Positions 3,702 to 34,413 of a stretch of DNA of 64,000 nucleotides are shown one piece after another. The DNA is from Sphingobacteriaceae bacterium. GTDB lineage: Bacteria; Bacteroidota; Bacteroidia; Sphingobacteriales; Sphingobacteriaceae. The stretch's first letter is position 1; every line of letters starts with the position of its first letter. Position numbers and translations under genes: made by a program. The stretch lies in assembly GCA_043763625.1 (NCBI GenBank), contig JAYULL010000171.1, positions 16,077-80,076 of the forward strand, written 5' to 3'. Below the pieces are notes generated by a model. That model was given only the letters and a program-made list of their open reading frames with translations, did not search any database and was not told the DNA's origin.

Positions 3702-6026
3702 ATGAACGAAGCAGAAACCCGGGCCGAATTAATTGACCCTCAACTAACAGCAGCGGGCTGGGGCTTGGTAGACGGAAGCAAAGTACATCGAGAGTTTAAC
3801 ATCACTGCCGGAAAGATAAAAACAGGCGGCGGAAGGGCGATGCCCTTAAAAGCCGATTATGTTTTAAGTTATAAAGACCGCAAGCTTGCTGCCATTGAAG
3901 CCAAAAGCGATATTCAGGAAGTAGGCGAAGGCGTTGCTCAAGCCAAAGATTACGCGGAGAAGCTTCAACTGGATACCACGTTTGCGGCAAACGGTAAAGA
4001 GATTTACCGCATCTGCATGAAAACGGGTAAAGAGGGATTAGTCGCCAATTTTCCAACCCCACAAGAACTATGGGATCATACTTTTGGAGATCAAAATACT
4101 TGGAGAGATCAGTTTGATGCAGTCTCATATCCCGATATCAGCGGAACTAAAAAACCTCGTTATTATCAGGAACTTGCGGTAACCAGGGTAGTAGACGCCA
4201 TCGCAAAAAACCAACAACGTATTTTATTAACCCTTGCAACCGGGACAGGTAAAACAACCATAGCCTTTCACATTGCATGGAAACTGTTTCAAACCCGCTG
4301 GAACCTACAACGTGACGGAAGTCGCAGACCACGGGTTTTATTTTTGGCTCACCGTAATATACTAGCCAATCAGGCGTTCGGCGAGTTTACTGCTTATTCA
4401 GCTTTTAGCGAAGACGCCTTGGTGCGAATAAATCCCGCAGAAGTAAAGAAGAACGGAAGGGTACCCACAAACGGCAGTATATTCTTTACCATCTTCCAAA
4501 CGTTTATGTCGGGGATGGATAGAGACGGTAATCCGGTACCAAATTTCGGGGAGTACCCCAAAGATTATTTCGACCTTATTATTATCGACGAATGCCATAC
4601 CGGTGGTGCAAACGCCGAAGGTAATTGGCGTGGAATTCTGGAATACTTTTCTCCTGCCGTTCAGCTTGGTTTAACCGCCACCCCTAAACGGAAGGATAAC
4701 GTAGATACCTACGCCTATTTTGGTGAACCTGTTTATATCTATTCACTAAAGCAAGGTATCAACGATGGTTTCTTAACTCCTTTTAAGGTAAAGCGCATAC
4801 AAACAACAGTGGATGAGTATATCTATACTAGTGATGATATCTTGATGGAAGGCGAAATCGAATATGGTAAAACTTACACAGAAAAGGATTTTAACGTTAC
4901 TATAGAGATTAAAGAGCGGGAAAGGAAGCGTGTGCAGCTTTATCTGGCTGAGGTTGATCAGAAAGCAAAGGCGATTGTGTTTTGTGCTAGTCAGGGTCAC
5001 GCTGCCCTAACGCGGGACTTGATTAATCAGAATAAAAAATCAACAGCAGCGAACTACTGTGTTCGTGTAACTGCCAACGATGGCGGCTTAGGCGACCAAT
5101 ATTTAAAGGAGTTTCAGGACAATGAGAAATCATTACCCACTGTTTTAACAACTTCCCGCAAACTTTCTACCGGAGTGGATGCTCGTAACGTTCGTAACAT
5201 TGTATTGCTTCGCCCGATTCGGGATATTATTGAATTTAAACAAATAGTTGGTCGGGGAACCCGTTTGTTTGATGGCAAAGAGTTCTTTACCATTTACGAT
5301 TTTGTCGATGCTTATAAACATTTCGCAGATCCGGAATGGGATGGAGAACCTTTAGAACCCGAACCGGCAACACCTCGTCCGCCCGTTGGGACACCATTGC
5401 CGCCGGGAGATGGAGGCGAACCGACTGCTCCGCCAAAGCAAAAAATCAAAATTAAACTTCGAGACGGAAAAGAACGCGAAATACAACACATGATGTCCAC
5501 TTCATATTGGAGTGCTGATGGTCGGCCGATTTCTGCTCAAGAGTTTTTAGATAATCTGTTTGGTGCTTTACCGGCATTATTTAAAGATGAAGATGAACTC
5601 CGCAGCATCTGGTCTAATCCTTTAACCAGAAGAACCCTACTTGAAAAGCTGGATGAAGCCGGTTTCGGGAAAGAAGAATTGACAGTTGTGCAGAAACTGA
5701 TCAATGCGGAGAAAAGTGATTTGTTTGACGTGCTGGAGTATGTGTACAACAGCAACTTTACCCCGATATCCAGAGAAAACAGGGTTGTAAACGCGCAACC
5801 AAACATCTTTGCACTTTTGAATGATAATCAAAAAGAATTTTTAGAATTTGTGCTTGCTAAATATATAGAAACAGGAGTTGAGGAACTCGATGAAGAGAAG
5901 CTGCCTAAGCTGTTGGAACTGAAATACCATTCTTTGAATGATGGAGCGCAAAAGTTGGGTGGGGTGAAGGTGATAAGGGAAACGTTTATAGGATTTCAGA
6001 AGTGGTTGTATGAGGAAGTGGGATAG
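3702..6026 (+). CDS. hsdR: Type I restriction endonuclease subunit HsdR (SF2 helicase/nuclease with an EcoEI-R-type C-terminal domain)
   Basis: 774 aa. Walker A LATGTGKTT, DEAH-box IIIDECH, and helicase motif VI QIVGRGTR are present. A Pro-rich linker PEPATPRPPVGTPLPPGDGGEPTAPP precedes the C-terminal domain. Confidence 0.9.
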   Translation: MNEAETRAELIDPQLTAAGWGLVDGSKVHREFNITAGKIKTGGGRAMPLKADYVLSYKDRKLAAIEAKSDIQEVGEGVAQAKDYAEKLQLDTTFAANGKEIYRICMKTGKEGLVANFPTPQELWDHTFGDQNTWRDQFDAVSYPDISGTKKPRYYQELAVTRVVDAIAKNQQRILLTLATGTGKTTIAFHIAWKLFQTRWNLQRDGSRRPRVLFLAHRNILANQAFGEFTAYSAFSEDALVRINPAEVKKNGRVPTNGSIFFTIFQTFMSGMDRDGNPVPNFGEYPKDYFDLIIIDECHTGGANAEGNWRGILEYFSPAVQLGLTATPKRKDNVDTYAYFGEPVYIYSLKQGINDGFLTPFKVKRIQTTVDEYIYTSDDILMEGEIEYGKTYTEKDFNVTIEIKERERKRVQLYLAEVDQKAKAIVFCASQGHAALTRDLINQNKKSTAANYCVRVTANDGGLGDQYLKEFQDNEKSLPTVLTTSRKLSTGVDARNVRNIVLLRPIRDIIEFKQIVGRGTRLFDGKEFFTIYDFVDAYKHFADPEWDGEPLEPEPATPRPPVGTPLPPGDGGEPTAPPKQKIKIKLRDGKEREIQHMMSTSYWSADGRPISAQEFLDNLFGALPALFKDEDELRSIWSNPLTRRTLLEKLDEAGFGKEELTVVQKLINAEKSDLFDVLEYVYNSNFTPISRENRVVNAQPNIFALLNDNQKEFLEFVLAKYIETGVEELDEEKLPKLLELKYHSLNDGAQKLGGVKVIRETFIGFQKWLYEEVG

Positions 6027-9283: not shown

Positions 9284-9340
9284 ATGTGGGCTAACGAATT
9301 TTCCTTAAATTCATTCCCGCACTTCAATACCCAAACAGCT

Positions 9341-10918
9341 ATGAAAAAAGAAATCTCCGCGTCCGAAACGAAAGACGATCTATCGGGGAAGGCCTCCGGC
9401 ATGAGCCGCCGCCAATTTGTTTCACTGACCGGCACAACTGCACTTGGCTTCTCAATTGTACCAAGACACGTGCTGGGAGGTACCGGCTATATCGCACCCA
9501 GCGATAAGATCACGATGGCTTATATCGGCATGGGTACACAGGGCATTCGTGAATTGTTACCGCTCCTAACCGTTCCGGAAATTCAGGTAGTGGCTGTTTG
9601 TGATCCTTGCAAAGAAGCAAGAGGCTATCGCGATTGGGACATCAATTCCCTTAAAAATGAAGTGCGTAAAGCACTCAACAAGCCTGACTGGACTCCCGGC
9701 GGCGACAACACGATCCCGGGAGGATTGGACAACGGCAAAGAGATAGTAGAAGCTTGGTACGCATCGATGCGCCCCGACAAAAAGTACAAAGGCTGTGCGG
9801 CCTATGCGGATGTGAGGGAATTGTTGGAAAAAGAAAAAGGCCTTGATAGTGTCAGGATCATGACACCTGACCACCTGCATGGAGTTTTAGCAATGGCCGC
9901 AATTAAAAGGGGAAAGCATGTGCTGATGCATAAACCGCTCTCTAACCGTTTGCTGGAAGGAAAGAAGGTAATTGAACTAGCCCGTAGCCGCCCTAAGGTG
10001 ATCACACATCTGATACCTTGGGACTCTAACGGTTCTATGGAGACGGTAATGGCCTGGATTAACGCAGGTGCCATCGGCAAACTTACTGAAGTGCACAACT
10101 GGACCAACCGGCCGGTGTGGCCGCAATTTCCTGAACTGCCTACGGACAAGCCTCCGGTTCCCGAGGGCTTTAACTGGGATCTTTGGCTCGGCCCTGAAAG
10201 CGATCGAGCTTATCATCCTAACTATACTCACATGGTTTTCCGAGGCTGGTACGACTTTGGTGGCGGCGCGATGGCGGACATGGGACATTACAGCCTTTGG
10301 ACGGTATTTGAAGCACTGCGGTTAACCTCTCCAACATCCGTGGAACCGCATCGCAGCCATGTAGTCAGCTTTAACGGCCCGGTGCCCTCTCAGATAAATA
10401 ATGATTTTTCTTTCCCGTTGGCCACCTCGGTACGTTTCCGCTACCCGGCAAATGAAGCTCGTGGGCCGGTAGACTTATTTTGGTACGATGGCGGCATGCG
10501 ACCTGCTGTACCGGAAGAACTGTCAGCCGTATACAAAGAGTTGCCGGCGGAAGGAATGCTGTTCGTGGGGGAAAAGGGGAAGATCCTCACAGGCTTTCGC
10601 CTGGAGGACCCGCAGATTATTTCGGGAATCAAAATGGAGGCGCCGGCGGGGGTAGTACAAAAAATTAGTGGCCGGGTACAAATGACGACCGAGGCATTGC
10701 CGCGGTTTGTACAAGCCTGTAAGGCCGGCAAGCAATACCCGGGTAGTTTTTCGGATGCAGGTTATATAACCGAAGCCGTAAACCTCTATGCGGCAGCCCT
10801 GCGTGCCAATAAACTACTCAAATACGATGCAGCTTCCGGTAAGATTACTAATGTGGAAAGCGCTAATAAGTACCTGCAGCGCGACTACCGGCCGGGATGG
10901 CAGCTTGGTTCCATTTAA
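9341..10918 (+). CDS. Gfo/Idh/MocA family oxidoreductase with a twin-arginine signal peptide
   Basis: MSRRQFVSLTGTTALG is a TAT motif, and a Rossmann fold begins at MAYIGMGTQG. The ATG at 9341 is preferred over 9284, which overlaps the transposase remnant. Confidence 0.85.
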   Translation: MKKEISASETKDDLSGKASGMSRRQFVSLTGTTALGFSIVPRHVLGGTGYIAPSDKITMAYIGMGTQGIRELLPLLTVPEIQVVAVCDPCKEARGYRDWDINSLKNEVRKALNKPDWTPGGDNTIPGGLDNGKEIVEAWYASMRPDKKYKGCAAYADVRELLEKEKGLDSVRIMTPDHLHGVLAMAAIKRGKHVLMHKPLSNRLLEGKKVIELARSRPKVITHLIPWDSNGSMETVMAWINAGAIGKLTEVHNWTNRPVWPQFPELPTDKPPVPEGFNWDLWLGPESDRAYHPNYTHMVFRGWYDFGGGAMADMGHYSLWTVFEALRLTSPTSVEPHRSHVVSFNGPVPSQINNDFSFPLATSVRFRYPANEARGPVDLFWYDGGMRPAVPEELSAVYKELPAEGMLFVGEKGKILTGFRLEDPQIISGIKMEAPAGVVQKISGRVQMTTEALPRFVQACKAGKQYPGSFSDAGYITEAVNLYAAALRANKLLKYDAASGKITNVESANKYLQRDYRPGWQLGSI

Positions 10919-10943
10919 TTCACTTCAAAAAAGAAACTAAACA

Positions 10944-11798
10944 ATGAAGCGCAAAGCATTCCTAAAAACAACCGCCACCGGTCTTGGAGGTGCGTTTTTC
11001 CTGGCCCATTTACCCGGTCAGCTGCTAGCTGCCACCCGCCTAATGAACATTCCGCTCGGTTTCCAAACTTGGGTGGTAAAAGACGCCCTCGCCAATGACT
11101 TTTCCGGTACACTGAAAACGATGGCCGCAGAAGGCTTCCGGACGGTAGAAATGTGTTCGCCGAAAGGATACGAGAAAATGGGTTTTGGCCCGCTTGCCGC
11201 AATGAAGGTATCCGACATGCGCAGCATCATCACAGATGCCGGGTTAACCTGCCCAAGCTGCCATTATACGTTTACCGAATTGACGGCACAAAACCTTGAT
11301 GAGAGTATTGAATTTGCAAAGCAGTTGGGAATCAAGCACATGATCTGTTCTCACCCGGGCCTGCCGGCGACGGCAACACTTGACGAATACCTGTTGCGAG
11401 CCGATGAGCTTAACAAAGCGGCTGAGAAGATAAAAAAAGCGGGGCTTCAGCTGGGCTATCACAATCACAGTATTGAGTTTGCTGTGTTGTCCGGCCGGCT
11501 GATATATGATGCGCTTCTTGAGCGTTTAGACCCGACGCTGGTAAAAATGCAGTTTCAGACGGAAGTGATCAATCTTGGTTACAAAGGCGCCGATTATTTC
11601 AAGAAGCATCCCGGCCGATTTATTTCAGCTCACCTCTCCGACTGGACAGCGGACAAAAAGGAGATGCCGATAGGAAAAGGGGTAATAGACTGGAAAGAAT
11701 TTTTTGCAGCTGCAAAAAATGCAGGCATAGAAACTTTTTTTGTGGAGATGACACCCGTAACTTTTAAAGAAAGCGTCAGGTATATACGTTCCCTTTAA
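10944..11798 (+). CDS. Sugar phosphate isomerase/epimerase (xylose isomerase-like TIM barrel), secreted
   Basis: 284 aa with an N-terminal signal-like segment KRKAFLKTTATGLGGAFFLA. The pairing with a Gfo/Idh/MocA gene is typical. Confidence 0.75.
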   Translation: MKRKAFLKTTATGLGGAFFLAHLPGQLLAATRLMNIPLGFQTWVVKDALANDFSGTLKTMAAEGFRTVEMCSPKGYEKMGFGPLAAMKVSDMRSIITDAGLTCPSCHYTFTELTAQNLDESIEFAKQLGIKHMICSHPGLPATATLDEYLLRADELNKAAEKIKKAGLQLGYHNHSIEFAVLSGRLIYDALLERLDPTLVKMQFQTEVINLGYKGADYFKKHPGRFISAHLSDWTADKKEMPIGKGVIDWKEFFAAAKNAGIETFFVEMTPVTFKESVRYIRSL

Positions 11799-12287: not shown

Positions 12288-13826
12288 ATGAAATGTATAA
12301 TAACCATCTTCCTGTTTTTTATTTCATTTAATGCTTTTAGTCAAGCGGTAAAAGAGCCTATAACTTTGGCAAGTCCTGAACTGAATAAATATTTTGCATC
12401 GGCAAAACCCCCAACTGTTTCCGGAAAAATTATTAACGCAAGTCCTGAGGAGTTGGTAAAGCTTTCTGTAACTTATGCTTTGGTGACTCCTTTTAAAAAC
12501 TTCCAAGAAAAAGGGGTTTCTCCGCAAATAAAAAACGACGGAACATTTACATTTACTCTCGATTACCCCTTTCCTTATCAGCAAATTTGGTTTAACCTTG
12601 GCGATTATTTTTATGGAGCGTTGTATGTTAACAGGAATACGCACCTAGAGTTCGACTTCGCTCAACTGAAAAAAAAGGATGTTTACTTCATTGGAGAGGG
12701 TGTTAAGTATCTTGGGGAAGACGGACCCGCAACTGATTGGCTAAACAACCTGTTCATGTACCGACGTGAAGAGGTATCAGCAATTGAAGATTCCCTCAGA
12801 AAAATTGATGCTGAGATAGCTGATTATTCTGTGAAGACGGACTCAATCTATTCACTTTTACAGGGCATTCAGGATGAATATATCAAACTGCATCCCTCGC
12901 CCTATAGCTGGATTGCTAAAAATGAATTAAAATCAAAGTTTTACGAGACTCTGCTGTCAAAGGGGAGACGGAGTGGTGAAGAAATACAAAATTGGGAAGA
13001 CATTAAGCAGCATGTGCCGAAAATTATTTCTAATTCAGGCATGGGTTTTAATAGTATGCTTTATTCTTATCTTAATAGCAAAGTGAGTGGAAATCTTAAT
13101 AGTATGCTTTATTCTTATCGTGATAGCAAAGTGAGTGGAGATCCATCAGAAATTCGAAAACTTGTAAGTACTCCTAATTCTGACATACTGATGCTTCGGG
13201 CATCTATCGCCGATGTTAAGAAGAACGAAAAATTTCAGGACAGTTTGATAAAGGTGATAGAAACTCCTTGGGTAAGAGCCGCTATGAAGAAAAAGCAACA
13301 GCTTAATTTGCAAAAAACACAGCAACCTAATGCGTCTTTAAAAGCCGGGCTTAACGCGGGTAGCAATTCATCACTTGGTAAATTGATAGAGGAGCATCCT
13401 TATGGTGCCAAACTGTATAGTGCTGATAACATCGCCGCAGCAGATTTTCTTGCCAAGCTTTCTTCTCGTTTCAAAGGAAAAGCCATCGTGCTTGATTTCT
13501 GGGCAACATGGTGTGGTCCATGTATTGCTGCTATGCCATCAATGATGTCTGTAAATAAAGAAGCAGTAGATCTTCCCGTTGAATTTGTATATCTGTGTAC
13601 AAGCAGTAACTCCTCAATGGATTTATGGAAAAAGCAGGTTATAAAAATGAAACAGCAGGGAACACATGTGTTTTTAAATGAAAAATTAGCTAATGAGTTG
13701 ATGGCTCTGTTTGGCAAAGGTGGCTTTCCAAGTTACGTTTATTTGGATCGTAAGGGACAGATGTCTAAAGCAATAAGTGACTCTGAACATTTGTCAATAA
13801 ACGCATTAAAGAGATTAGTAGAGTAA
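12288..13826 (+). CDS. TlpA/ResA-like thiol:disulfide oxidoreductase with a long N-terminal domain
   Basis: 512 aa with a signal peptide. The thioredoxin active site FWATWCGPC lies near the C-terminus. Confidence 0.75.
   Translation: MKCIITIFLFFISFNAFSQAVKEPITLASPELNKYFASAKPPTVSGKIINASPEELVKLSVTYALVTPFKNFQEKGVSPQIKNDGTFTFTLDYPFPYQQIWFNLGDYFYGALYVNRNTHLEFDFAQLKKKDVYFIGEGVKYLGEDGPATDWLNNLFMYRREEVSAIEDSLRKIDAEIADYSVKTDSIYSLLQGIQDEYIKLHPSPYSWIAKNELKSKFYETLLSKGRRSGEEIQNWEDIKQHVPKIISNSGMGFNSMLYSYLNSKVSGNLNSMLYSYRDSKVSGDPSEIRKLVSTPNSDILMLRASIADVKKNEKFQDSLIKVIETPWVRAAMKKKQQLNLQKTQQPNASLKAGLNAGSNSSLGKLIEEHPYGAKLYSADNIAAADFLAKLSSRFKGKAIVLDFWATWCGPCIAAMPSMMSVNKEAVDLPVEFVYLCTSSNSSMDLWKKQVIKMKQQGTHVFLNEKLANELMALFGKGGFPSYVYLDRKGQMSKAISDSEHLSINALKRLVE
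13048..13143 (+). repeat. 48-bp tandem duplication inside the TlpA-like CDS
   Basis: ttaatagtatgctttattcttatc(t/g)t(a/g)atagcaaagtgagtgga(a/g)atc occurs twice. It encodes NSMLYSY(L/R)(N/D)SKVSG(N/D) x2. Confidence 0.8.
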
Positions 13827-29278: not shown

Positions 29279-30298
29279 ATGCGAATTTTTACTTCTGTTC
29301 ACGACGTTAACAATGTTCCGGCAATTGTTGACGAAGCTTTATTTCTGAAGCAAAATCCATTTTCAAACCAAGAAATAGGGAAAAACAAAACAATCGGGCT
29401 GATATTCATGAACCCGAGCCTTCGAACTCGCTTAAGCACACAAAAAGCTGCTCTTAACTTGGGTATGAACGTTATCGTAATGAACATGGATAAAGAGGGT
29501 TGGGCTTTAGAAACCCGCGACGGAGTAGTAATGAACGGAACAACGGTAGAACATATACGCGAAGCTGCCGGAGTGATGGGAGAATATTGTGATATTTTAG
29601 GTATCCGCTCGTTTCCCGGCCTAAAAGACAAAGAAGAAGATTACAGTGAGGACATTTTTAACAAGTTTGTAAAATACAGTGGCAAACCGGTTGTAAGTTT
29701 AGAAAGCGCAATACGCCATCCGCTGCAAAGTCTAGCCGATTTAATTACTATAGTGGAACATTCTAAGGTATCTTCTGTGATAGAAAATGCAAACGGCGGT
29801 TTTGTTCCCTCTCCACCGGAGAGGGCCGGGGTGAGGCCCAAAGTAGTTCTCACTTGGGCTCCTCACGTAAAATCTCTTCCTCAAGCTGTCCCAAACTCCT
29901 TTTCTGAATGGATGTGCAGAGCACAAAATGAAGGAATGCTTGACTTTGTAATCACGCATCCCGAAGGATATGAACTTGCAGAAGAATTTACTCAGGGAGC
30001 AAAAATCACGCATAATCAGGATGAAGCTTTAAAAGGAGCTGATTTTATTTATGTAAAAAACTGGTCGAGCTTTAAGGATTATGGAAAAGTTCTAACCTCG
30101 GGTGAGGGTTGGATGTTAAACCGGGAAAGACTTAAGAGCACTAACCGAGCAAAAGTAATGCATTGTCTTCCCGTGAGACGAGATTTAGAATTAAGTTCTG
30201 ACATTTTAGACAGCCACGATTCTATAGTAATTAAAGAAGCAGGAAATAGGGTGTGGGCTGCGCAGGCAGTATTAACGCGAATGTTGAAAAACCTTTAG
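29279..30298 (+). CDS. argF: N-acetyl/N-succinyl-ornithine carbamoyltransferase (ArgF'-type)
   Basis: Motifs FMNPSLRTRLS, HPLQSLADL and HCLPVRR are present. At 339 aa it has an insert of about 20 aa before RPKVVLTWAPH. Confidence 0.85.
   Translation: MRIFTSVHDVNNVPAIVDEALFLKQNPFSNQEIGKNKTIGLIFMNPSLRTRLSTQKAALNLGMNVIVMNMDKEGWALETRDGVVMNGTTVEHIREAAGVMGEYCDILGIRSFPGLKDKEEDYSEDIFNKFVKYSGKPVVSLESAIRHPLQSLADLITIVEHSKVSSVIENANGGFVPSPPERAGVRPKVVLTWAPHVKSLPQAVPNSFSEWMCRAQNEGMLDFVITHPEGYELAEEFTQGAKITHNQDEALKGADFIYVKNWSSFKDYGKVLTSGEGWMLNRERLKSTNRAKVMHCLPVRRDLELSSDILDSHDSIVIKEAGNRVWAAQAVLTRMLKNL
29807..29838 (+). repeat. GC-rich palindromic element (CCCTCTC-CACCG-GAGAGGG + CCGGGGTGAGGCC) in-frame in argF'
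   Basis: It has a 7-bp stem and is translated as PSPPERAGVRP. Confidence 0.6.
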
Positions 30299-30799
30299 CA
30301 GAAGTATATCTCTAAGTCTTTTAAAAATACGGACGAAAAGAAGTTTTAACCTTTATGCAGAAATACCGTTTTGCCACAATTGTATTTGCAGTTTGATGAG
30401 AGACATAGAGCATAATATCTGCCTTTTTGGTATCAAAAGAGTTAGTAAAACATCATTGTTTATTCTCCCCTAGCCAAGGGCGGTCCTCAAGCCGGAGCTT
30501 TAACCGGTAAAGATATTTTAGTTATTTTTTCGGAACCACACGCTTACATTTCTGCCGGTGTTCCAATAAACAGAAAGCATCCATACCGAGAATTACATTA
30601 TTAACGCCGACCTGCCGCCACAGACGTCAGGATATTTACTTTGGGAAGGCAAACGATATGAACTAAAGGCGGGCCGGTTCGCCTGGCACCCGCTTCCGCC
30701 GGGGGAATAAAGGGAAAAAAATTTATTTTTTCTATTACGTGTTTAAACTTCTTTATAAAACTTTTGTCTATGATGCATAGAGTTTTTTAGTGTAGGTGT

Positions 30800-30839
30800 A
30801 GAGAGGGGGGGCAGTTCGAAAGGGCTGCTCTCTTTTTTT
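30800..30839 (+). terminator. Possible rho-independent terminator (bulged hairpin plus T7)
   Basis: agaga-gggggg-gcag ttcgaaaggg ctgc-tctct ttttttt. Confidence 0.35.
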
Positions 30840-30846
30840 GTGTAAC

Positions 30847-31293
30847 TTACTTTTTTCCCTCCGTCGAATTCCTCCTGATCAGCTCGTCCAGACTCCATTT
30901 GCCTGCACCGAAAACCAATAAGGCTAATAAGAAGATTAAGTAATAAAGCGGTATCTCGAATCCGTTATCGCCTGCTTCAAAGCCATTGCCCCAATGCACC
31001 GTTTTGATGGCAACAAGCATCACGACAATTAGCGGGATAGTAATAAAACGTATTCCTAATCCTAGAACTAACAGAATGACTCCTAAAGCTTCGGTTCCGG
31101 CAGCGAGGTAAGCGTTTAAAGCCGGAAAAGGAATACCCATTCCTTTAAACCAGTCTATAATATCATTTATATTAGTCCATTTCATAACTGCAGGTTCGTA
31201 AAAACCGTAAGCTAAGACCATGCGAATAAGAAACAGTGGAAGTGATTTTGCCGTTGAAAGCAAAGCAATGTACTTCAATACAAATTTTTTCAT
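30847..31293 (-). CDS. DoxX family membrane protein (last gene of the MNIO RiPP cluster)
   Basis: 148 aa with 4 TM segments and DoxX-like topology and size. Synteny with DUF692/DUF2063 supports the call. Confidence 0.7.
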   Translation of the reverse strand: MKKFVLKYIALLSTAKSLPLFLIRMVLAYGFYEPAVMKWTNINDIIDWFKGMGIPFPALNAYLAAGTEALGVILLVLGLGIRFITIPLIVVMLVAIKTVHWGNGFEAGDNGFEIPLYYLIFLLALLVFGAGKWSLDELIRRNSTEGKK

Positions 31294-31337
31294 TTTGTTT
31301 GATTTAATTATGAAGGAAAGGATTGATAAGATTTATG

Positions 31338-32087
31338 TTACAGCTTAAAACCCAAGATGAATTGCTTTTGCTTCATCTCGTTTAAAAAGTTTACGGTATA
31401 TTCGATAAGTTGGTTTTTTTCGGTATCAGGAAACAAAGAAGCTGTTTCGTCTAATATTTCTTGCAGGGTATATTCGGCGTTAAGCAGTTGCTCAACCACA
31501 ATCGCGTAAAGTCCGGAAAGATTAACAAACTCCACTTCGCGGGTTTCCAAATCCCGATAGGCCAGTAGAAAGTATACTCCTTTGTTAACCTCCAAATTTT
31601 CAGGAGTTGTAAGATGAACCGGATATTCGAATTGAACAATTTTAGTTTCAGGATTAACAACAACGATGTCGATAAGCCAATCACCTTGAGGTTTGTATTC
31701 CCGCACCGGCAAATCTTCCATATTATAAAGCTCAATCTCGAGCCATTCGAAATATAAAAGATCCTTTAAATACGGCAGCTCGGGTTTTTCGGAGAACTCG
31801 TTTTCAATCAGATATTCGTAAAACTCAAAGGGGAGTTTCCAAACTTGAGGCGACTGAGCTTTGTGGTTAGAAAAGAAATTTTGAACTAATTCGTGCCATT
31901 TATCCTCACCCAGTAATTGAAAAGTAATAGGATAAGCGTTTTCAAGCGTATCGAAAACTACATTGTAGACAAGTTCGCGGTAGCGGGAAATATTTTTATT
32001 TGTTCCGGGGATTTCGGGCTTTATTCCTGTTCGGCAATAGTCGGCAAGCAAGCTTTGGGCTTCAAAAGTTTCAGACTGCAAGTGCAT
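31338..32087 (-). CDS. DUF2063-type RiPP maturation partner protein (BufC/HvfC-like)
   Basis: 249 aa. The start overlaps the DUF692 stop by 17 nt. The position immediately after DUF692 is the canonical arrangement. Confidence 0.6.
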   Translation of the reverse strand: MHLQSETFEAQSLLADYCRTGIKPEIPGTNKNISRYRELVYNVVFDTLENAYPITFQLLGEDKWHELVQNFFSNHKAQSPQVWKLPFEFYEYLIENEFSEKPELPYLKDLLYFEWLEIELYNMEDLPVREYKPQGDWLIDIVVVNPETKIVQFEYPVHLTTPENLEVNKGVYFLLAYRDLETREVEFVNLSGLYAIVVEQLLNAEYTLQEILDETASLFPDTEKNQLIEYTVNFLNEMKQKQFILGFKL

Positions 32088-32898
32088 GAGTTCTTACTGC
32101 TTTTGAAGCGCAAATAAATTTCAGTCGTTCTAGTTCTGTTTGCAATTCTTCCATTTCCGGAATATTGAAATCGCGTTCAAGCAAAACCGGCACGTTGTCG
32201 ACCAAATTCATAGTGTAATCAAAAAGGTCGAAAACGGGTTCTACAATGGCTTCTCCGTGCGTATCAATGATTAGATCTTCCGAAACTTGTTCGTGTCCTG
32301 CCATGTGGATGTACGCAACCTCGCTTAAAGGCAATCCGCTAATAAATGCTTTTGCATCGTATTTATGATTAAAAGAGTTTACATACACATTGTTCACATC
32401 GAGCAAAAGTTTGCAACCGGATTTGGCAACTATGGAATTGATAAAGGCGAGTTCGTCCATTTCTGCGGCAACAGGCGAATAATAAGAAACAATTTCGAGC
32501 ACTAATTCTCGCCCTAAAAAGCCTTGAATAGAATCAATTCTGTTTACAATATGATTAACTGCATCATGCCGAAAAGGGATTGGAAGTAAATCGTAGAGGT
32601 GAGCGTTATTGCATTTGGAATAGCTCAAATGCTCGGAGTAGATCTTGACGTTGTATTCTTGGAGAAAATTCTTTATCTGTTTCAAAAAATCCCAATCCAA
32701 CTCGTCCGGACTGCCGATAGAAAGCGAAAGACCGTGAGTAAAAATCGGATACTTCTCAGCAACTCGGTTTAGCATTTTTTTCCAATTTCCGCCTAATCCC
32801 ACCCAATTTTCCGGAGCAAGTTCAACGAAGTCAGGCTTTATCACCGATCCTTCTATTAACTCTTCGGCAAAATCACGTCTAAATCCTATTCCTACCAT
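32071..32898 (-). CDS. DUF692 multinuclear non-haem iron oxidative enzyme (MNIO; BufB/HvfB/MbnB family)
   Basis: MVGIGFRRDF...FVELAPENW...THGLSLSIGS...SEHLSY...LLDVNNVYVNS...YIHMAGH matches DUF692 blocks. The ATG at 32898 is preferred over 32970. Confidence 0.85.
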   Translation of the reverse strand: MVGIGFRRDFAEELIEGSVIKPDFVELAPENWVGLGGNWKKMLNRVAEKYPIFTHGLSLSIGSPDELDWDFLKQIKNFLQEYNVKIYSEHLSYSKCNNAHLYDLLPIPFRHDAVNHIVNRIDSIQGFLGRELVLEIVSYYSPVAAEMDELAFINSIVAKSGCKLLLDVNNVYVNSFNHKYDAKAFISGLPLSEVAYIHMAGHEQVSEDLIIDTHGEAIVEPVFDLFDYTMNLVDNVPVLLERDFNIPEMEELQTELERLKFICASKAVRTHALAV

Positions 32899-32986
32899 AA
32901 TTGCTTCAAAGTATTTCGTCGTCTCGACGATAGGAGAGATCCTCGCTTTCGCTTTCCTTCCCATCGTCAATACGACAAATCATTAA

Positions 32987-33322
32987 TTATTTTTTCTTGT
33001 CGCCACCGCATTTACCTTCGCCGCATTTTGCGTCTTTGGTTTTTGCTTTAGCACCTTTTTTACCTTTAGCACCACATTTGCCGTCTTTAGTTTTAGCACC
33101 GCATTTACCGTCTTTAGTTTTAGTGCTGTCTTTTCCGCACTTTAATTCAAAAGCTTTGTCCACAACATTGTTGGAAAGTAATTCAGCTCTAACTTCAGAA
33201 GCTGTACCTAAAGAAGAATACGTGTTTAAGGAAGCCGCCGCAGTAGCAGCTAATGCCGACACACTCATAATTGCTCCGGCCAATAAAGAGCCGCTTAAGA
33301 TTGATTTTTTGTTTGATTTCAT
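32987..33322 (-). CDS. Secreted Cys/Gly/Lys-repeat RiPP precursor (HvfA/bufferin-like metallophore candidate)
   Basis: 111 aa. A Sec signal peptide (MKSNKKSILSGSLLAGAIMSVSALA) is followed by five C-G dipeptides in KCGK, DGKCGAK x2 and KCGEGKCGG. It lies directly upstream of the MNIO gene. Confidence 0.7.
   Translation of the reverse strand: MKSNKKSILSGSLLAGAIMSVSALAATAAASLNTYSSLGTASEVRAELLSNNVVDKAFELKCGKDSTKTKDGKCGAKTKDGKCGAKGKKGAKAKTKDAKCGEGKCGGDKKK
33065..33118. repeat. 27-bp tandem repeat x2 within the precursor gene
   Basis: tttagcacc(a/g)cattt(g/a)ccgtctttagt occurs twice and encodes TKDGKCGAK x2 on the minus strand. Confidence 0.85.
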
Positions 33323-33461
33323 TTTGTGTAAATTAATTGTTTATAGTTGTCAGCTTCCCGCTGAATATTTTAGTTCTACCTTTAATCTTGGTTTTTTGAT
33401 TATTGTCTCGTGCTTCCTTTTCTCTCTTAGACGTTCCGTGGAAATAAGCCTTACAATAAAA

Positions 33462-33734
33462 TTAACCTTTTTTTATTTCGCTATCAATTATCTTTTCTAA
33501 GTTCGACTTAAAATCTTCATGGAGTTTAAAATCAATACTATTTTCCATATATAATTCTTTCACCTTTCGTTCGATAAACCGACTTTGCTTGCTATACAAT
33601 TTACAGAAAGAACAACCGATTAAGTGAATCGAAAGCTCTAATCCTTTCCTCCGGCTCAAGCCTTCCGAATTTCTTCTTTCAATAAGCTCGGTAGCCTTTT
33701 TGCAATTCCATAATAATGCTATAAGCCCTGACAT
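33462..33734 (-). CDS. Anti-sigma factor, soluble zf-HC2/ZAS type
   Basis: 90 aa with motif H-LIG-C-SF-C (H-x3-C-x2-C) and no TM segment. The start lies 1 nt after the sigma-factor stop. Confidence 0.6.
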   Translation of the reverse strand: MSGLIALLWNCKKATELIERRNSEGLSRRKGLELSIHLIGCSFCKLYSKQSRFIERKVKELYMENSIDFKLHEDFKSNLEKIIDSEIKKG

Positions 33735-33735
33735 T

Positions 33736-34305
33736 CTATCTCCCTACCCAATTTTTCTCCACACAAGCCCTTAAACTTAATTTAGCTCGGTGCATGATTA
33801 CCCAAAAGTTAGACGGCGATAAATTCAGTTCCTTACAAATGTTTTCCGAATCCTCATCATCAAGGTGTTTCATCGTGAATACTGACAACCATAAGTACGG
33901 CATTTTTCCCATACATAGTTTCAGCATTTCGCCAAATTCTTTATTTTCTATAGAATCAGCTTCATCGTAAGCAATTTCACGCGGGCTGTATTCAGGCTTC
34001 CAGTGTCCGTTGTCTTCAAAAAAATTATCCGGATTCAATTCATTTATACTATGCGAAATAGTTTTATTCCCCGCATTTTTTCGATGATAATCAATGATTT
34101 TATTTTTAAGAATTGCAACCAACCAAGTTCTTTCGGAACTTTTGCCTTGAAACGAACCACGGTTTTTAAGGCCGGATATAAAAGTATCCTGAATTAAATC
34201 TTTGCAAGTTTCTGAGTCTGAAATTCTCCTTACCGCAAAAGCATACAAATAATCGGCGTGATTTTTAACCCAAGCCTCCGGTTCTAAACTTTTATCTTGG
34301 TGCAA
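33736..34305 (-). CDS. ECF-type RNA polymerase sigma-70 factor
   Basis: 189 aa. Region 2 reads DLIQDTFISGL...WLVAILKNKIIDYHR. Region 4 contains an HTH at SENICKELNLSPSNFWVIMHRAKLSLR. Confidence 0.85.
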   Translation of the reverse strand: MHQDKSLEPEAWVKNHADYLYAFAVRRISDSETCKDLIQDTFISGLKNRGSFQGKSSERTWLVAILKNKIIDYHRKNAGNKTISHSINELNPDNFFEDNGHWKPEYSPREIAYDEADSIENKEFGEMLKLCMGKMPYLWLSVFTMKHLDDEDSENICKELNLSPSNFWVIMHRAKLSLRACVEKNWVGR

Positions 34306-34413
34306 AACTCAGGTATAATTTCAAAATTAGAGCTTATATTTCTTTGATTTTTGGTTACAAAAAACTTTAACATTAATTAACAGAAGTATAAATAGGGTTT
34401 CTTTGGAGGTTAG

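Follow-up and report, generated by a model that had tools for sequence, protein, structure and literature searches.

A predicted captophorin-type peptide cluster with a sigma factor/ZAS anti-sigma pair in a Sphingobacteriaceae genome

A group of six genes around a DUF692 enzyme, located in a 64,000-nt stretch of a Sphingobacteriaceae genome (contig JAYULL010000171.1; the whole stretch is called the window below), raises the question of what it makes, what switches it on, and whether it is a system of its own kind, as the first-pass annotation of this DNA had suggested. By analogy with characterized relatives, the locus was read as an hvf-type ('captophorin', Lys-Cys group) cluster for a ribosomally synthesized peptide with post-translational modifications (RiPP), which would be a secreted copper-binding peptide under the control of an extracytoplasmic function (ECF) sigma factor and a zinc-associated anti-sigma (ZAS) protein; the probability of this reading was put at about 75%. 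The locus is an uncharacterised member of a known, already curated cluster type and no new kind of system. The genes, all co-directional open reading frames (ORFs) within positions 30847-34305, and a conserved motif in the precursor are as follows:

33736..34305, minus strand: ECF sigma factor, 189 aa, TTG start
33462..33734, minus strand: cytoplasmic ZAS anti-sigma, 90 aa
32987..33322, minus strand: HvfA-type precursor, 111 aa
33176..33220, minus strand: precursor leader motif, residues 35-49 (from conservation)
32071..32898, minus strand: HvfB, multinuclear non-haem iron oxidative enzyme (MNIO, DUF692) maturase, 275 aa from ATG 32898
31338..32087, minus strand: HvfC, DUF2063 / NGO1945_C, PME1 partner containing a RiPP recognition element (RRE), 249 aa
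30847..31293, minus strand: HvfX, DoxX-family membrane protein, 148 aa

The ORF listing confirmed the tight packing of the six genes that had been described, with an overlap of 17 nt between hvfB and hvfC and a gap of 1 nt between the sigma stop codon and the anti-sigma ATG. Housekeeping genes flank the group, with arginine biosynthesis at one end and a Clp-type AAA+ chaperone next to an ABC-F ATPase at the other, and the six genes were therefore taken as a bounded unit.

Maturation proteins, precursor and related loci

Model searches and conserved synteny upheld the earlier assignment as an MNIO/DUF2063/DoxX cluster of the HvfA type. HvfB passed both PF05114 (324 bits) and the HvfB model NF003818 (375 bits, cutoff 360), and a Chitinophaga protein 70% identical to it carries the RefSeq name 'HvfB family MNIO-type RiPP peptide maturase'. 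The ORF opens upstream at TTG 32970 and gene callers used this 297-aa form, whose additional codons would run through a strong RNA hairpin; the start was set at ATG 32898 because homology to Pfam and NCBIfam models and to all close relatives, which likewise have 275 aa, begins there. The closest solved structure was 3BWW from Histophilus somni (213.7 bits), in which the motifs HGLSLS, SEHL, LDVNN, HMAGH, DTHG and LLERD of HvfB are identical or near-identical, the metal-site comparison being made at motif level. HvfC matched PF09836 (DUF2063, 58.8 bits) and PF22106 (NGO1945_C, 50.4 bits), both above cutoff. HvfX matched PF07681 (64.8 bits) and the HvfX model NF050144 (130 bits, cutoff 80), and is hydrophobic along its whole length with a maximum 19-residue mean of 2.59. 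Other MNIO cluster types were rejected by the same kind of search, namely bufferins (276 bits on the BufB model NF050167, cutoff 310) and ChrH- and ApyH-type clusters.

The precursor begins with a hydrophobic segment consistent with a Sec signal peptide (maximum Kyte-Doolittle 19-residue mean 1.86), and its core agreed exactly with the sequence quoted before, including five Cys each followed by Gly. All five (residues 62, 74, 83, 100 and 105) lie in K-C-G, in the sites ELKCG, DGKCG (twice), DAKCG and EGKCG. The precursor passed the domain model NF050137 KCGExKCG_twice (25.4 bits, cutoff 19.5) and had 345 homologues at E <= 0.001; the name 'HvfA family' is already used in RefSeq for a Ferruginibacter albus protein 52% identical to it.

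To place the locus among its relatives, species-representative genomes were scanned with HvfB, which gave 304 relatives, and the best 80 (64-72% identity) were used for locus comparison. These 80 all belong to the Fibrobacterota-Chlorobiota-Bacteroidota (FCB) group and include Chitinophaga, metagenome-assembled genomes of Bacteroidia and Flavobacteriales, Ignavibacteriales, Melioribacter and Calditrichaceae; the window genome is not one of them, and the nearest named relatives are from Chitinophaga (72%) and Melioribacter/Ignavibacteriales (about 69%). Searches of the ORFs in these loci with all six window proteins showed that about 60 of the 80, from Bacteroidota, Ignavibacteriota and Calditrichota, have the same gene order as the window (sigma, anti-sigma, precursor, hvfB, hvfC, doxX). 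The arrangement is thus more than chance.

The 80 precursors have a signal peptide throughout and a Lys-rich core with 4-8 Cys, and 327 of their 407 core Cys are in K-C-G, mostly as EGKCG, DGKCG or DAKCG. The Lys content of the tail is 24-36% in all of them, with the window precursor at the top of the range (36%). Because a Lys-rich core is the norm throughout this clade, it is no peculiarity of the window locus and does not distinguish it in the way that had been supposed; the window peptide is a typical clade member. Between signal peptide and core, the leader motif Y-x-x-L-G-[ST]-[GA]-x-E-[VL]-R-x-x-L-L was found at residues 35-49, and its relaxed form [LM]G[STN][GAS]x[EAQSD][VLI]R in 80/80 FCB-group precursors; the N. 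gonorrhoeae precursor lacks the motif, and the precursor of an Acinetobacter plasmid does not clearly have it. On this conservation pattern the leader motif may be a recognition element for the HvfC RRE domain of the FCB clade.

A group of Chitinophaga loci (L034, L045, L049, L063 and L066) stands apart within the set. Their precursor ORFs end at about 5926-5932 and carry Cys in K-C-A, K-C-S or K-C-V, not K-C-G; these loci lack both the promoter motif described below and a neighbouring sigma/anti-sigma pair. They look like a distinct cluster sub-type.

Regulators, promoter motifs and hairpins

The sigma factor, a two-domain ECF protein, matched Pfam Sigma70_r2 (53.6 bits) and passed TIGR02937 (73.2 bits, cutoff 42.9); Sigma70_r4_2 was just under cutoff (25.1 vs 25.7 bits), and its best family, TIGR02943, was also below cutoff (148.8 vs 162.2 bits). 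Its identity to N. gonorrhoeae sigmaE is 35% across 175 aa (E 1e-32), with an NGHW linker common to both, and that to the sigma factor of Acinetobacter plasmid pAURM-2 is 30% (E 4e-32). The adjacent 90-aa protein had been described as a soluble anti-sigma with H-x3-C-x2-C, and both points hold: the ligands C11 and H37-x3-C41-x2-C44 are present, with the upstream Cys 26 residues ahead of the His, and there is no transmembrane segment, the highest 19-residue Kyte-Doolittle mean being 0.68. About 60 orthologues, all short proteins, keep these ligand positions; in an alignment of 69 sequences C11 and C44 never vary, and conservation is at least 90% for H37 and C41. The score on the antisigmaE model NF052368 was 37.7 bits (E 1.3e-9), under the cutoff of 50, and 68 of the 69 relatives match this model.

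The anti-sigma aligns without gaps to MseR, the anti-sigma of the neisserial sigmaE, with all four ligands in register, which is also the register of RsrA. Taken together with the sigma identity, this suggests that the pair is orthologous to sigmaE/MseR, as it appears from sequence comparison. An exhaustive HMMER search brought the anti-sigma family to 387 representatives, of which the 150 listed range from 60 to 121 aa, while a word-indexed homology search returned a single, near-identical relative (93%). The AlphaFold2 model of the anti-sigma is all-helical (pLDDT 87.7), and a PDB sequence search with the protein returned nothing relevant.

The regulatory elements predicted in and around these genes are as follows:

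33808..33837, minus strand: predicted internal promoter within the 3' end of the sigma gene (motif match and codon constraint)
33427..33455, minus strand: predicted promoter of the precursor/maturase operon (motif match)
32915..32979, minus strand: hairpin in the precursor/hvfB gap (folding energy against shuffles)
30796..30843, no strand assigned: GC-rich hairpin past the doxX stop (terminator scan)

A bipartite motif was derived de novo from the related loci, with the clade consensus TGTAAGG(A/T)TT-N12-CGTCTA(T/A). It is the same motif as the published N. meningitidis sigmaE consensus, which has GTMAGBWTT at -35, a spacer of 12-13 and CGTCTAAH at -10 (Hopman et al. 2010, PMC2893595). In the window the precursor promoter reads TGTAAGGCTT-N12-CGTCTAA at 33455-33427 on the minus strand, 7 nt past the anti-sigma stop and about 100 nt ahead of the precursor ATG; the predicted start is near 33420, giving a leader of about 98 nt. 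Exact matches to TGTAAG-N16-CGTC occur only twice in the window, at this site and at 33837-33808. Among the related loci, the relaxed motif was found upstream of the precursor in 51 of 62 with a cis sigma gene vs 4 of 17 without (background 0.09 per kb), and three of these four lack a full sigma gene in the locus. Applied to the N. gonorrhoeae locus, the search pattern picks only the known doxX promoter; in the Acinetobacter plasmid it picks a single site, ahead of the precursor (GTAAT...CGTCTA). Matches with one mismatch were at chance level in the window (6 found, including 384, 2448, 11558 and 29692, vs 2.6 expected), no further regulon member was found within it, and a generic scan for sigma-70 promoters gave a background count (11 vs 10.0 expected).

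The second exact match, TGTAAGG-N15-CGTCTAAC at 33837-33808, falls within the codons for region 4 of the sigma factor and precedes the anti-sigma ATG by about 70 nt. Judged from the motif and its codons, it could tentatively be a sigma-dependent internal promoter for the anti-sigma alone, which, with the sigma gene not autoregulated, would give a self-limiting pulse; we hold this possible, at somewhat under even odds. The motif is found in-frame in 58 of 62 related sigma genes. In these 58, which were chosen by pattern match and are phylogenetically non-independent, the Cys codon is always TGT (56% elsewhere in these genes), the Lys codon is AAG in 55 (25% elsewhere), and all 58 keep an NCG codon (14% elsewhere) whose amino acid may be S, T, P or A. 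A competing explanation, somewhat less probable but a serious one, is that the motif is no promoter at all but a by-product of region-4 amino acids and shared ancestry, so that the sole sigma-dependent promoter precedes the precursor. The motif does encode a conserved stretch, C-K-[DE]-[LFM]-x-[IL]-[ST]-x-S-N, and the dependence and pattern selection of the loci favor this explanation too, whereas the recurrence in nearly all loci, the NCG codon held through amino acid changes and the excess of AAG argue against it. So does the absence of the DNA motif from the sigma genes of N. gonorrhoeae and Acinetobacter, since the gonococcal sigmaE has a related S-T-S-N stretch at this position. The design would not be unprecedented, because E. 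coli rpoE contains a sigmaE-dependent promoter for rseA. If the internal promoter is real, the pulse wiring would be unlike the positively autoregulated Neisseria operon. The motif has been kept at synonymous sites across three phyla.

Ahead of the sigma gene, the relaxed pattern was found in only 9 of 60 loci, none of them consensus-like, and several of the nine are a single conserved stretch that lies some 190 nt upstream and may belong to a neighbouring gene. The absence of a sigma-type motif before the sigma gene points to no positive autoregulation, which was therefore rejected for the FCB clade. The corresponding region of the window (34306-34413) has no sigmaE-type motif. An TAATTTTG element about 25-30 nt ahead of the TTG start fits the housekeeping -7 consensus of Bacteroidetes, TAnnTTTG, hinting, from its sequence, at constitutive transcription of the regulator pair.

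Two hairpins were found in the unit. The one between precursor and hvfB (32979-32915) has a minimum free energy of -33.5 kcal/mol (z -5.45), with 0/200 shuffles as stable. Of 76 related loci, 74 have a hairpin in this place at z < -2 (median z -4.85); its sequence is not conserved, and in several a U-run follows. It is probably an attenuator, a partial terminator or an mRNA stabiliser, which would raise precursor over enzyme mRNA. The other (30796-30843) directly follows the doxX stop; it is GC-rich, has 20 pairs and is accompanied by a T-run (plus strand) and an A-run (minus strand). The six-gene transcription unit likely ends here, possibly at a bidirectional terminator; on the plus strand, the closest gene upstream encodes a carbamoyltransferase and ends at 30298, about 500 nt off. 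Neither the precursor/hvfB hairpin nor the precursor leader had a match in Rfam, which was searched with the entire window at gathering thresholds and with the locus at E <= 1, and a tRNA scan of the window found none.

Elsewhere in the window, the segment at about 9284-11798 may be acquired DNA. Its G+C content is raised (0.50 vs about 0.39-0.40 for the window), and its products are a Gfo/Idh/MocA-type oxidoreductase and a TIM-barrel protein resembling xylose isomerase. The segment is followed at 12288-13826 by a gene for a 512-aa protein with a C-terminal redoxin/thioredoxin-like domain.

Proposed mechanism and alternatives

In the proposed mechanism, the 111-aa precursor would be made in the cytoplasm, where the iron enzyme HvfB, together with the RRE-bearing HvfC, would carry out a four-electron oxidation of each Cys in the x-x-K-C-G sites to a 5-thiooxazole. 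Once modified, the Lys-rich peptide would be directed by its Sec signal peptide to the periplasm or the cell surface, and copper would be bound outside the cytoplasm by thiooxazole sulfur/nitrogen ligands. For its control, the ECF sigma factor would be kept inactive by the 90-aa cytoplasmic Zn-binding anti-sigma until it is freed by the attack of a thiol-reactive signal on the C11/C41/C44 zinc site; this signal would be an oxidant (e.g. HOCl or H2O2) or perhaps a thiophilic metal. Free sigma would transcribe precursor-hvfB-hvfC-hvfX from the promoter at 33455-33427, and the hairpin after the precursor gene would leave precursor mRNA in excess over enzyme mRNA. Re-expression of the anti-sigma alone from the internal promoter would shut the response down, and the sigma gene, having no sigma-type promoter unlike that of Neisseria, would not be positively autoregulated.

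The chemistry in this mechanism is taken from relatives. It has been reported that HvfA loses 4 Da per Cys and binds Cu, and its modification was first described as oxazolone/thioamide (PMC11252979). The assignment was changed in 2026 to 5-thiooxazole; 5-thiooxazoles were shown in fontiphorin, oxazolin and gonophorin, which were grouped as 'captophorins', and FonBC fully modifies a DGKCG variant (PMC13097082). DGKCG is the commonest site type in the window precursor. By analogy the product of the locus should be a 5-thiooxazole; of the two chemistries named in the first-pass annotation, thiooxazole is the one expected here.

Several observations weigh against this reading or its parts. Although the precursor passed the NF050137 domain model, it scored 27.2 bits on the HvfA equivalog model NF050188 (cutoff 95), and is therefore a member of the HvfA family by domain but not an HvfA equivalog; it has only one canonical KCGEGKCG pair and an odd number of Cys. 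HvfC is marginally under the NF050145 equivalog model (135.3 vs cutoff 142). Foldseek gave no PDB match for the anti-sigma model at E <= 0.001, which is not evidence against ZAS membership, and the precursor/hvfB hairpin of the window is without a clear U-tract. Cu binding by EGKCG peptides appears heterogeneous, and experiments and the published captophorin survey are centred on Pseudomonadota, with the FCB group uncovered (PMC13097082). Moreover, the meningococcal sigmaE, in contrast to rpoE2 of H. influenzae, was not induced by oxidants, namely H2O2, diamide or singlet oxygen (PMC2893595), and both Cu detoxification and oxidative-stress protection are candidate roles.

The last point leads to the better of the two functional alternatives, in which genes and chemistry are the same but the main job is protection of the envelope against oxidative, hypochlorite or thiol stress, e.g. 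by a sacrificial or redox-active peptide acting with DoxX, and copper is secondary. For example, rpoE2 of H. influenzae is induced by HOCl, H2O2 and paraquat, and through RpoE2 the hvf operon responds to HOCl together with MsrAB and MtsZ, methionine sulfoxide reductases of the periplasm (PMC7907618); the sigmaE regulon of Neisseria consists of the operon and msrAB (PMC2893595). The ligand layout of the window ZAS protein is that of the redox sensor RsrA, and a role in thiol homeostasis is cited for a DoxX homologue of M. tuberculosis in PMC11252979 and PMC7907618. However, copper binding by modified HvfA and its relatives was demonstrated directly (PMC11252979, PMC13097082), bufferins protect against copper, no msrAB or other motif-bearing gene occurs in the 64-kb window, and the failure of oxidants to induce the meningococcal sigmaE counts here as well (PMC2893595). 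We consider this alternative unlikely, though worth keeping in mind.

A chalkophore-like factor for metal acquisition, released and retaken like methanobactin, is highly improbable: the MNIO superfamily and a Cu-binding heterocycle-plus-sulfur ligand set are common to both, but methanobactin was rejected as cluster type (HvfB scored 56.6 on the MbnB model TIGR04159, cutoff 325), neither the locus nor its conserved relatives contain MbnA, MbnC, a TonB-dependent receptor or other transport gene, an exporter or a leader protease, the product would have about 80 residues once the signal peptide is removed and be no small excreted chelator, and the flanking genes are housekeeping genes.

Comparison with known systems

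Among characterized systems, the rpoE operon of Neisseria is the closest to the window locus. In N. meningitidis the operon NMB2140-2145 consists of doxX, three hypothetical genes, rpoE and mseR and is sigmaE-dependent, and MseR is a small cytoplasmic ZAS protein (Cys4/His30/Cys34/Cys37) whose Cys residues are required for anti-sigma activity (PMC2893595). The gene content of N. gonorrhoeae NGO1948-1943 was checked and comprises doxX, the gonophorin precursor, MNIO, DUF2063, sigmaE and MseR. The gonococcal sequence used (L083, PLSDB NZ_CP119142.1) is 2.17 Mb long with 17 annotated features and, filed as 'plasmid', is evidently a chromosome. The window thus has the same six gene families in one locus, a small cytoplasmic ZAS with Cys...H-x3-C-x2-C in register, a sigma factor of the identity given above and the same promoter consensus. 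In Neisseria, however, doxX comes first, the regulators last and a single autoregulated promoter serves the operon, whereas the window has the regulators first, a promoter ahead of the precursor, the internal motif in the sigma gene and none upstream of it. MseR is also shorter, with 59 aa as read in N. gonorrhoeae vs 90 aa, and the neisserial precursor has no L-G-x-G-x-E-V-R leader motif and has S-C-G sites too.

The doxX/hvf operon of H. influenzae is strictly RpoE2-dependent and is not induced in an rpoE2 mutant, and RpoE2 is held by HrsE, a 67-aa cytoplasmic ZAS protein, as found by co-purification (PMC7907618). The window resembles this hvfXABC (oxazolin) system in passing the HvfB, HvfX and precursor domain models, and in the Sec signal peptide, the (A)EGKCGEGKCG motif type and an ECF sigma factor with a cytoplasmic ZAS anti-sigma. 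The regulator genes of H. influenzae are located elsewhere, next to msrAB, whereas those of the window are adjacent. HvfA carries its double motif three times in tandem, together with an N-terminal disulfide pair; the window peptide instead combines one double motif with three isolated K-C-G sites set apart by Lys-rich spacers, and has no N-terminal Cys pair.

With fontiphorin (FonABC) and the captophorin Lys-Cys group, the window locus has in common an MNIO with PME1 (DUF2063 with RRE) and x-x-K-C-G 5-mers (PMC13097082). The determinants published for enzymes of the Lys-Cys type, Arg-Arg near the N-terminus and Asp-Phe near the C-terminus (PMC13097082), are matched in the window HvfB by GFRR (residues 5-8) and ERDF (241-244). 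The double Arg is kept in only 32 of the 80 FCB-group HvfB proteins, in which the clade differs from this group.

The bufferins Buf1/Buf2 (Caulobacter, and the gig operon of Cupriavidus) also combine an MNIO, DUF2063 and DoxX with a signal-peptide precursor; their product carries thiooxazoles and protects against copper stress under ECF control (SigF/NrsF). They differ from the window in that its precursor gave no match to the DUF2282 profile and its HvfB failed the BufB model, and in their anti-sigma NrsF, a membrane protein. Of the profiles named earlier for the precursor, the HvfA-family domain was found while DUF2282 and the HvfA equivalog were not. The statement that characterized examples use a membrane anti-sigma holds for Buf1 bufferins but not for Neisseria or Haemophilus. 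There, sigmaE/MseR and RpoE2/HrsE already place this operon under soluble ZAS regulators, and because of this the argument of the first-pass annotation fails: a soluble ZAS is no departure from the characterized proteobacterial systems and does not mark a distinct subfamily.

An uncharacterised plasmid locus outside the FCB group was found on pAURM-2 of Acinetobacter ursingii, which has a precursor, DUF692, DUF2063, sigma-70 and a 63-aa zf-HC2 protein with doxX alongside. Its HvfB is 51% identical to that of the window and the GTAAT...CGTCTA motif lies upstream of its precursor, whereas its regulators come last, doxX is divergent and the precursor has A-K-C-G repeats.

From these comparisons, the hvf/captophorin system with its sigmaE/ZAS switch extends past Pseudomonadota into a large FCB-group clade. 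Since the promoter specificity is common to Neisseria and the FCB phyla, the match suggests that enzyme genes and regulators travelled, or were retained, as one module. The features specific to the lineage are the leading position of the regulators, the precursor promoter, the internal motif in the sigma gene, the precursor/hvfB hairpin and the leader motif. With its five modification sites and predicted promoters, the small and clearly bounded window locus is a suitable case for studying the signal sensed by the ZAS protein and the role of DoxX.

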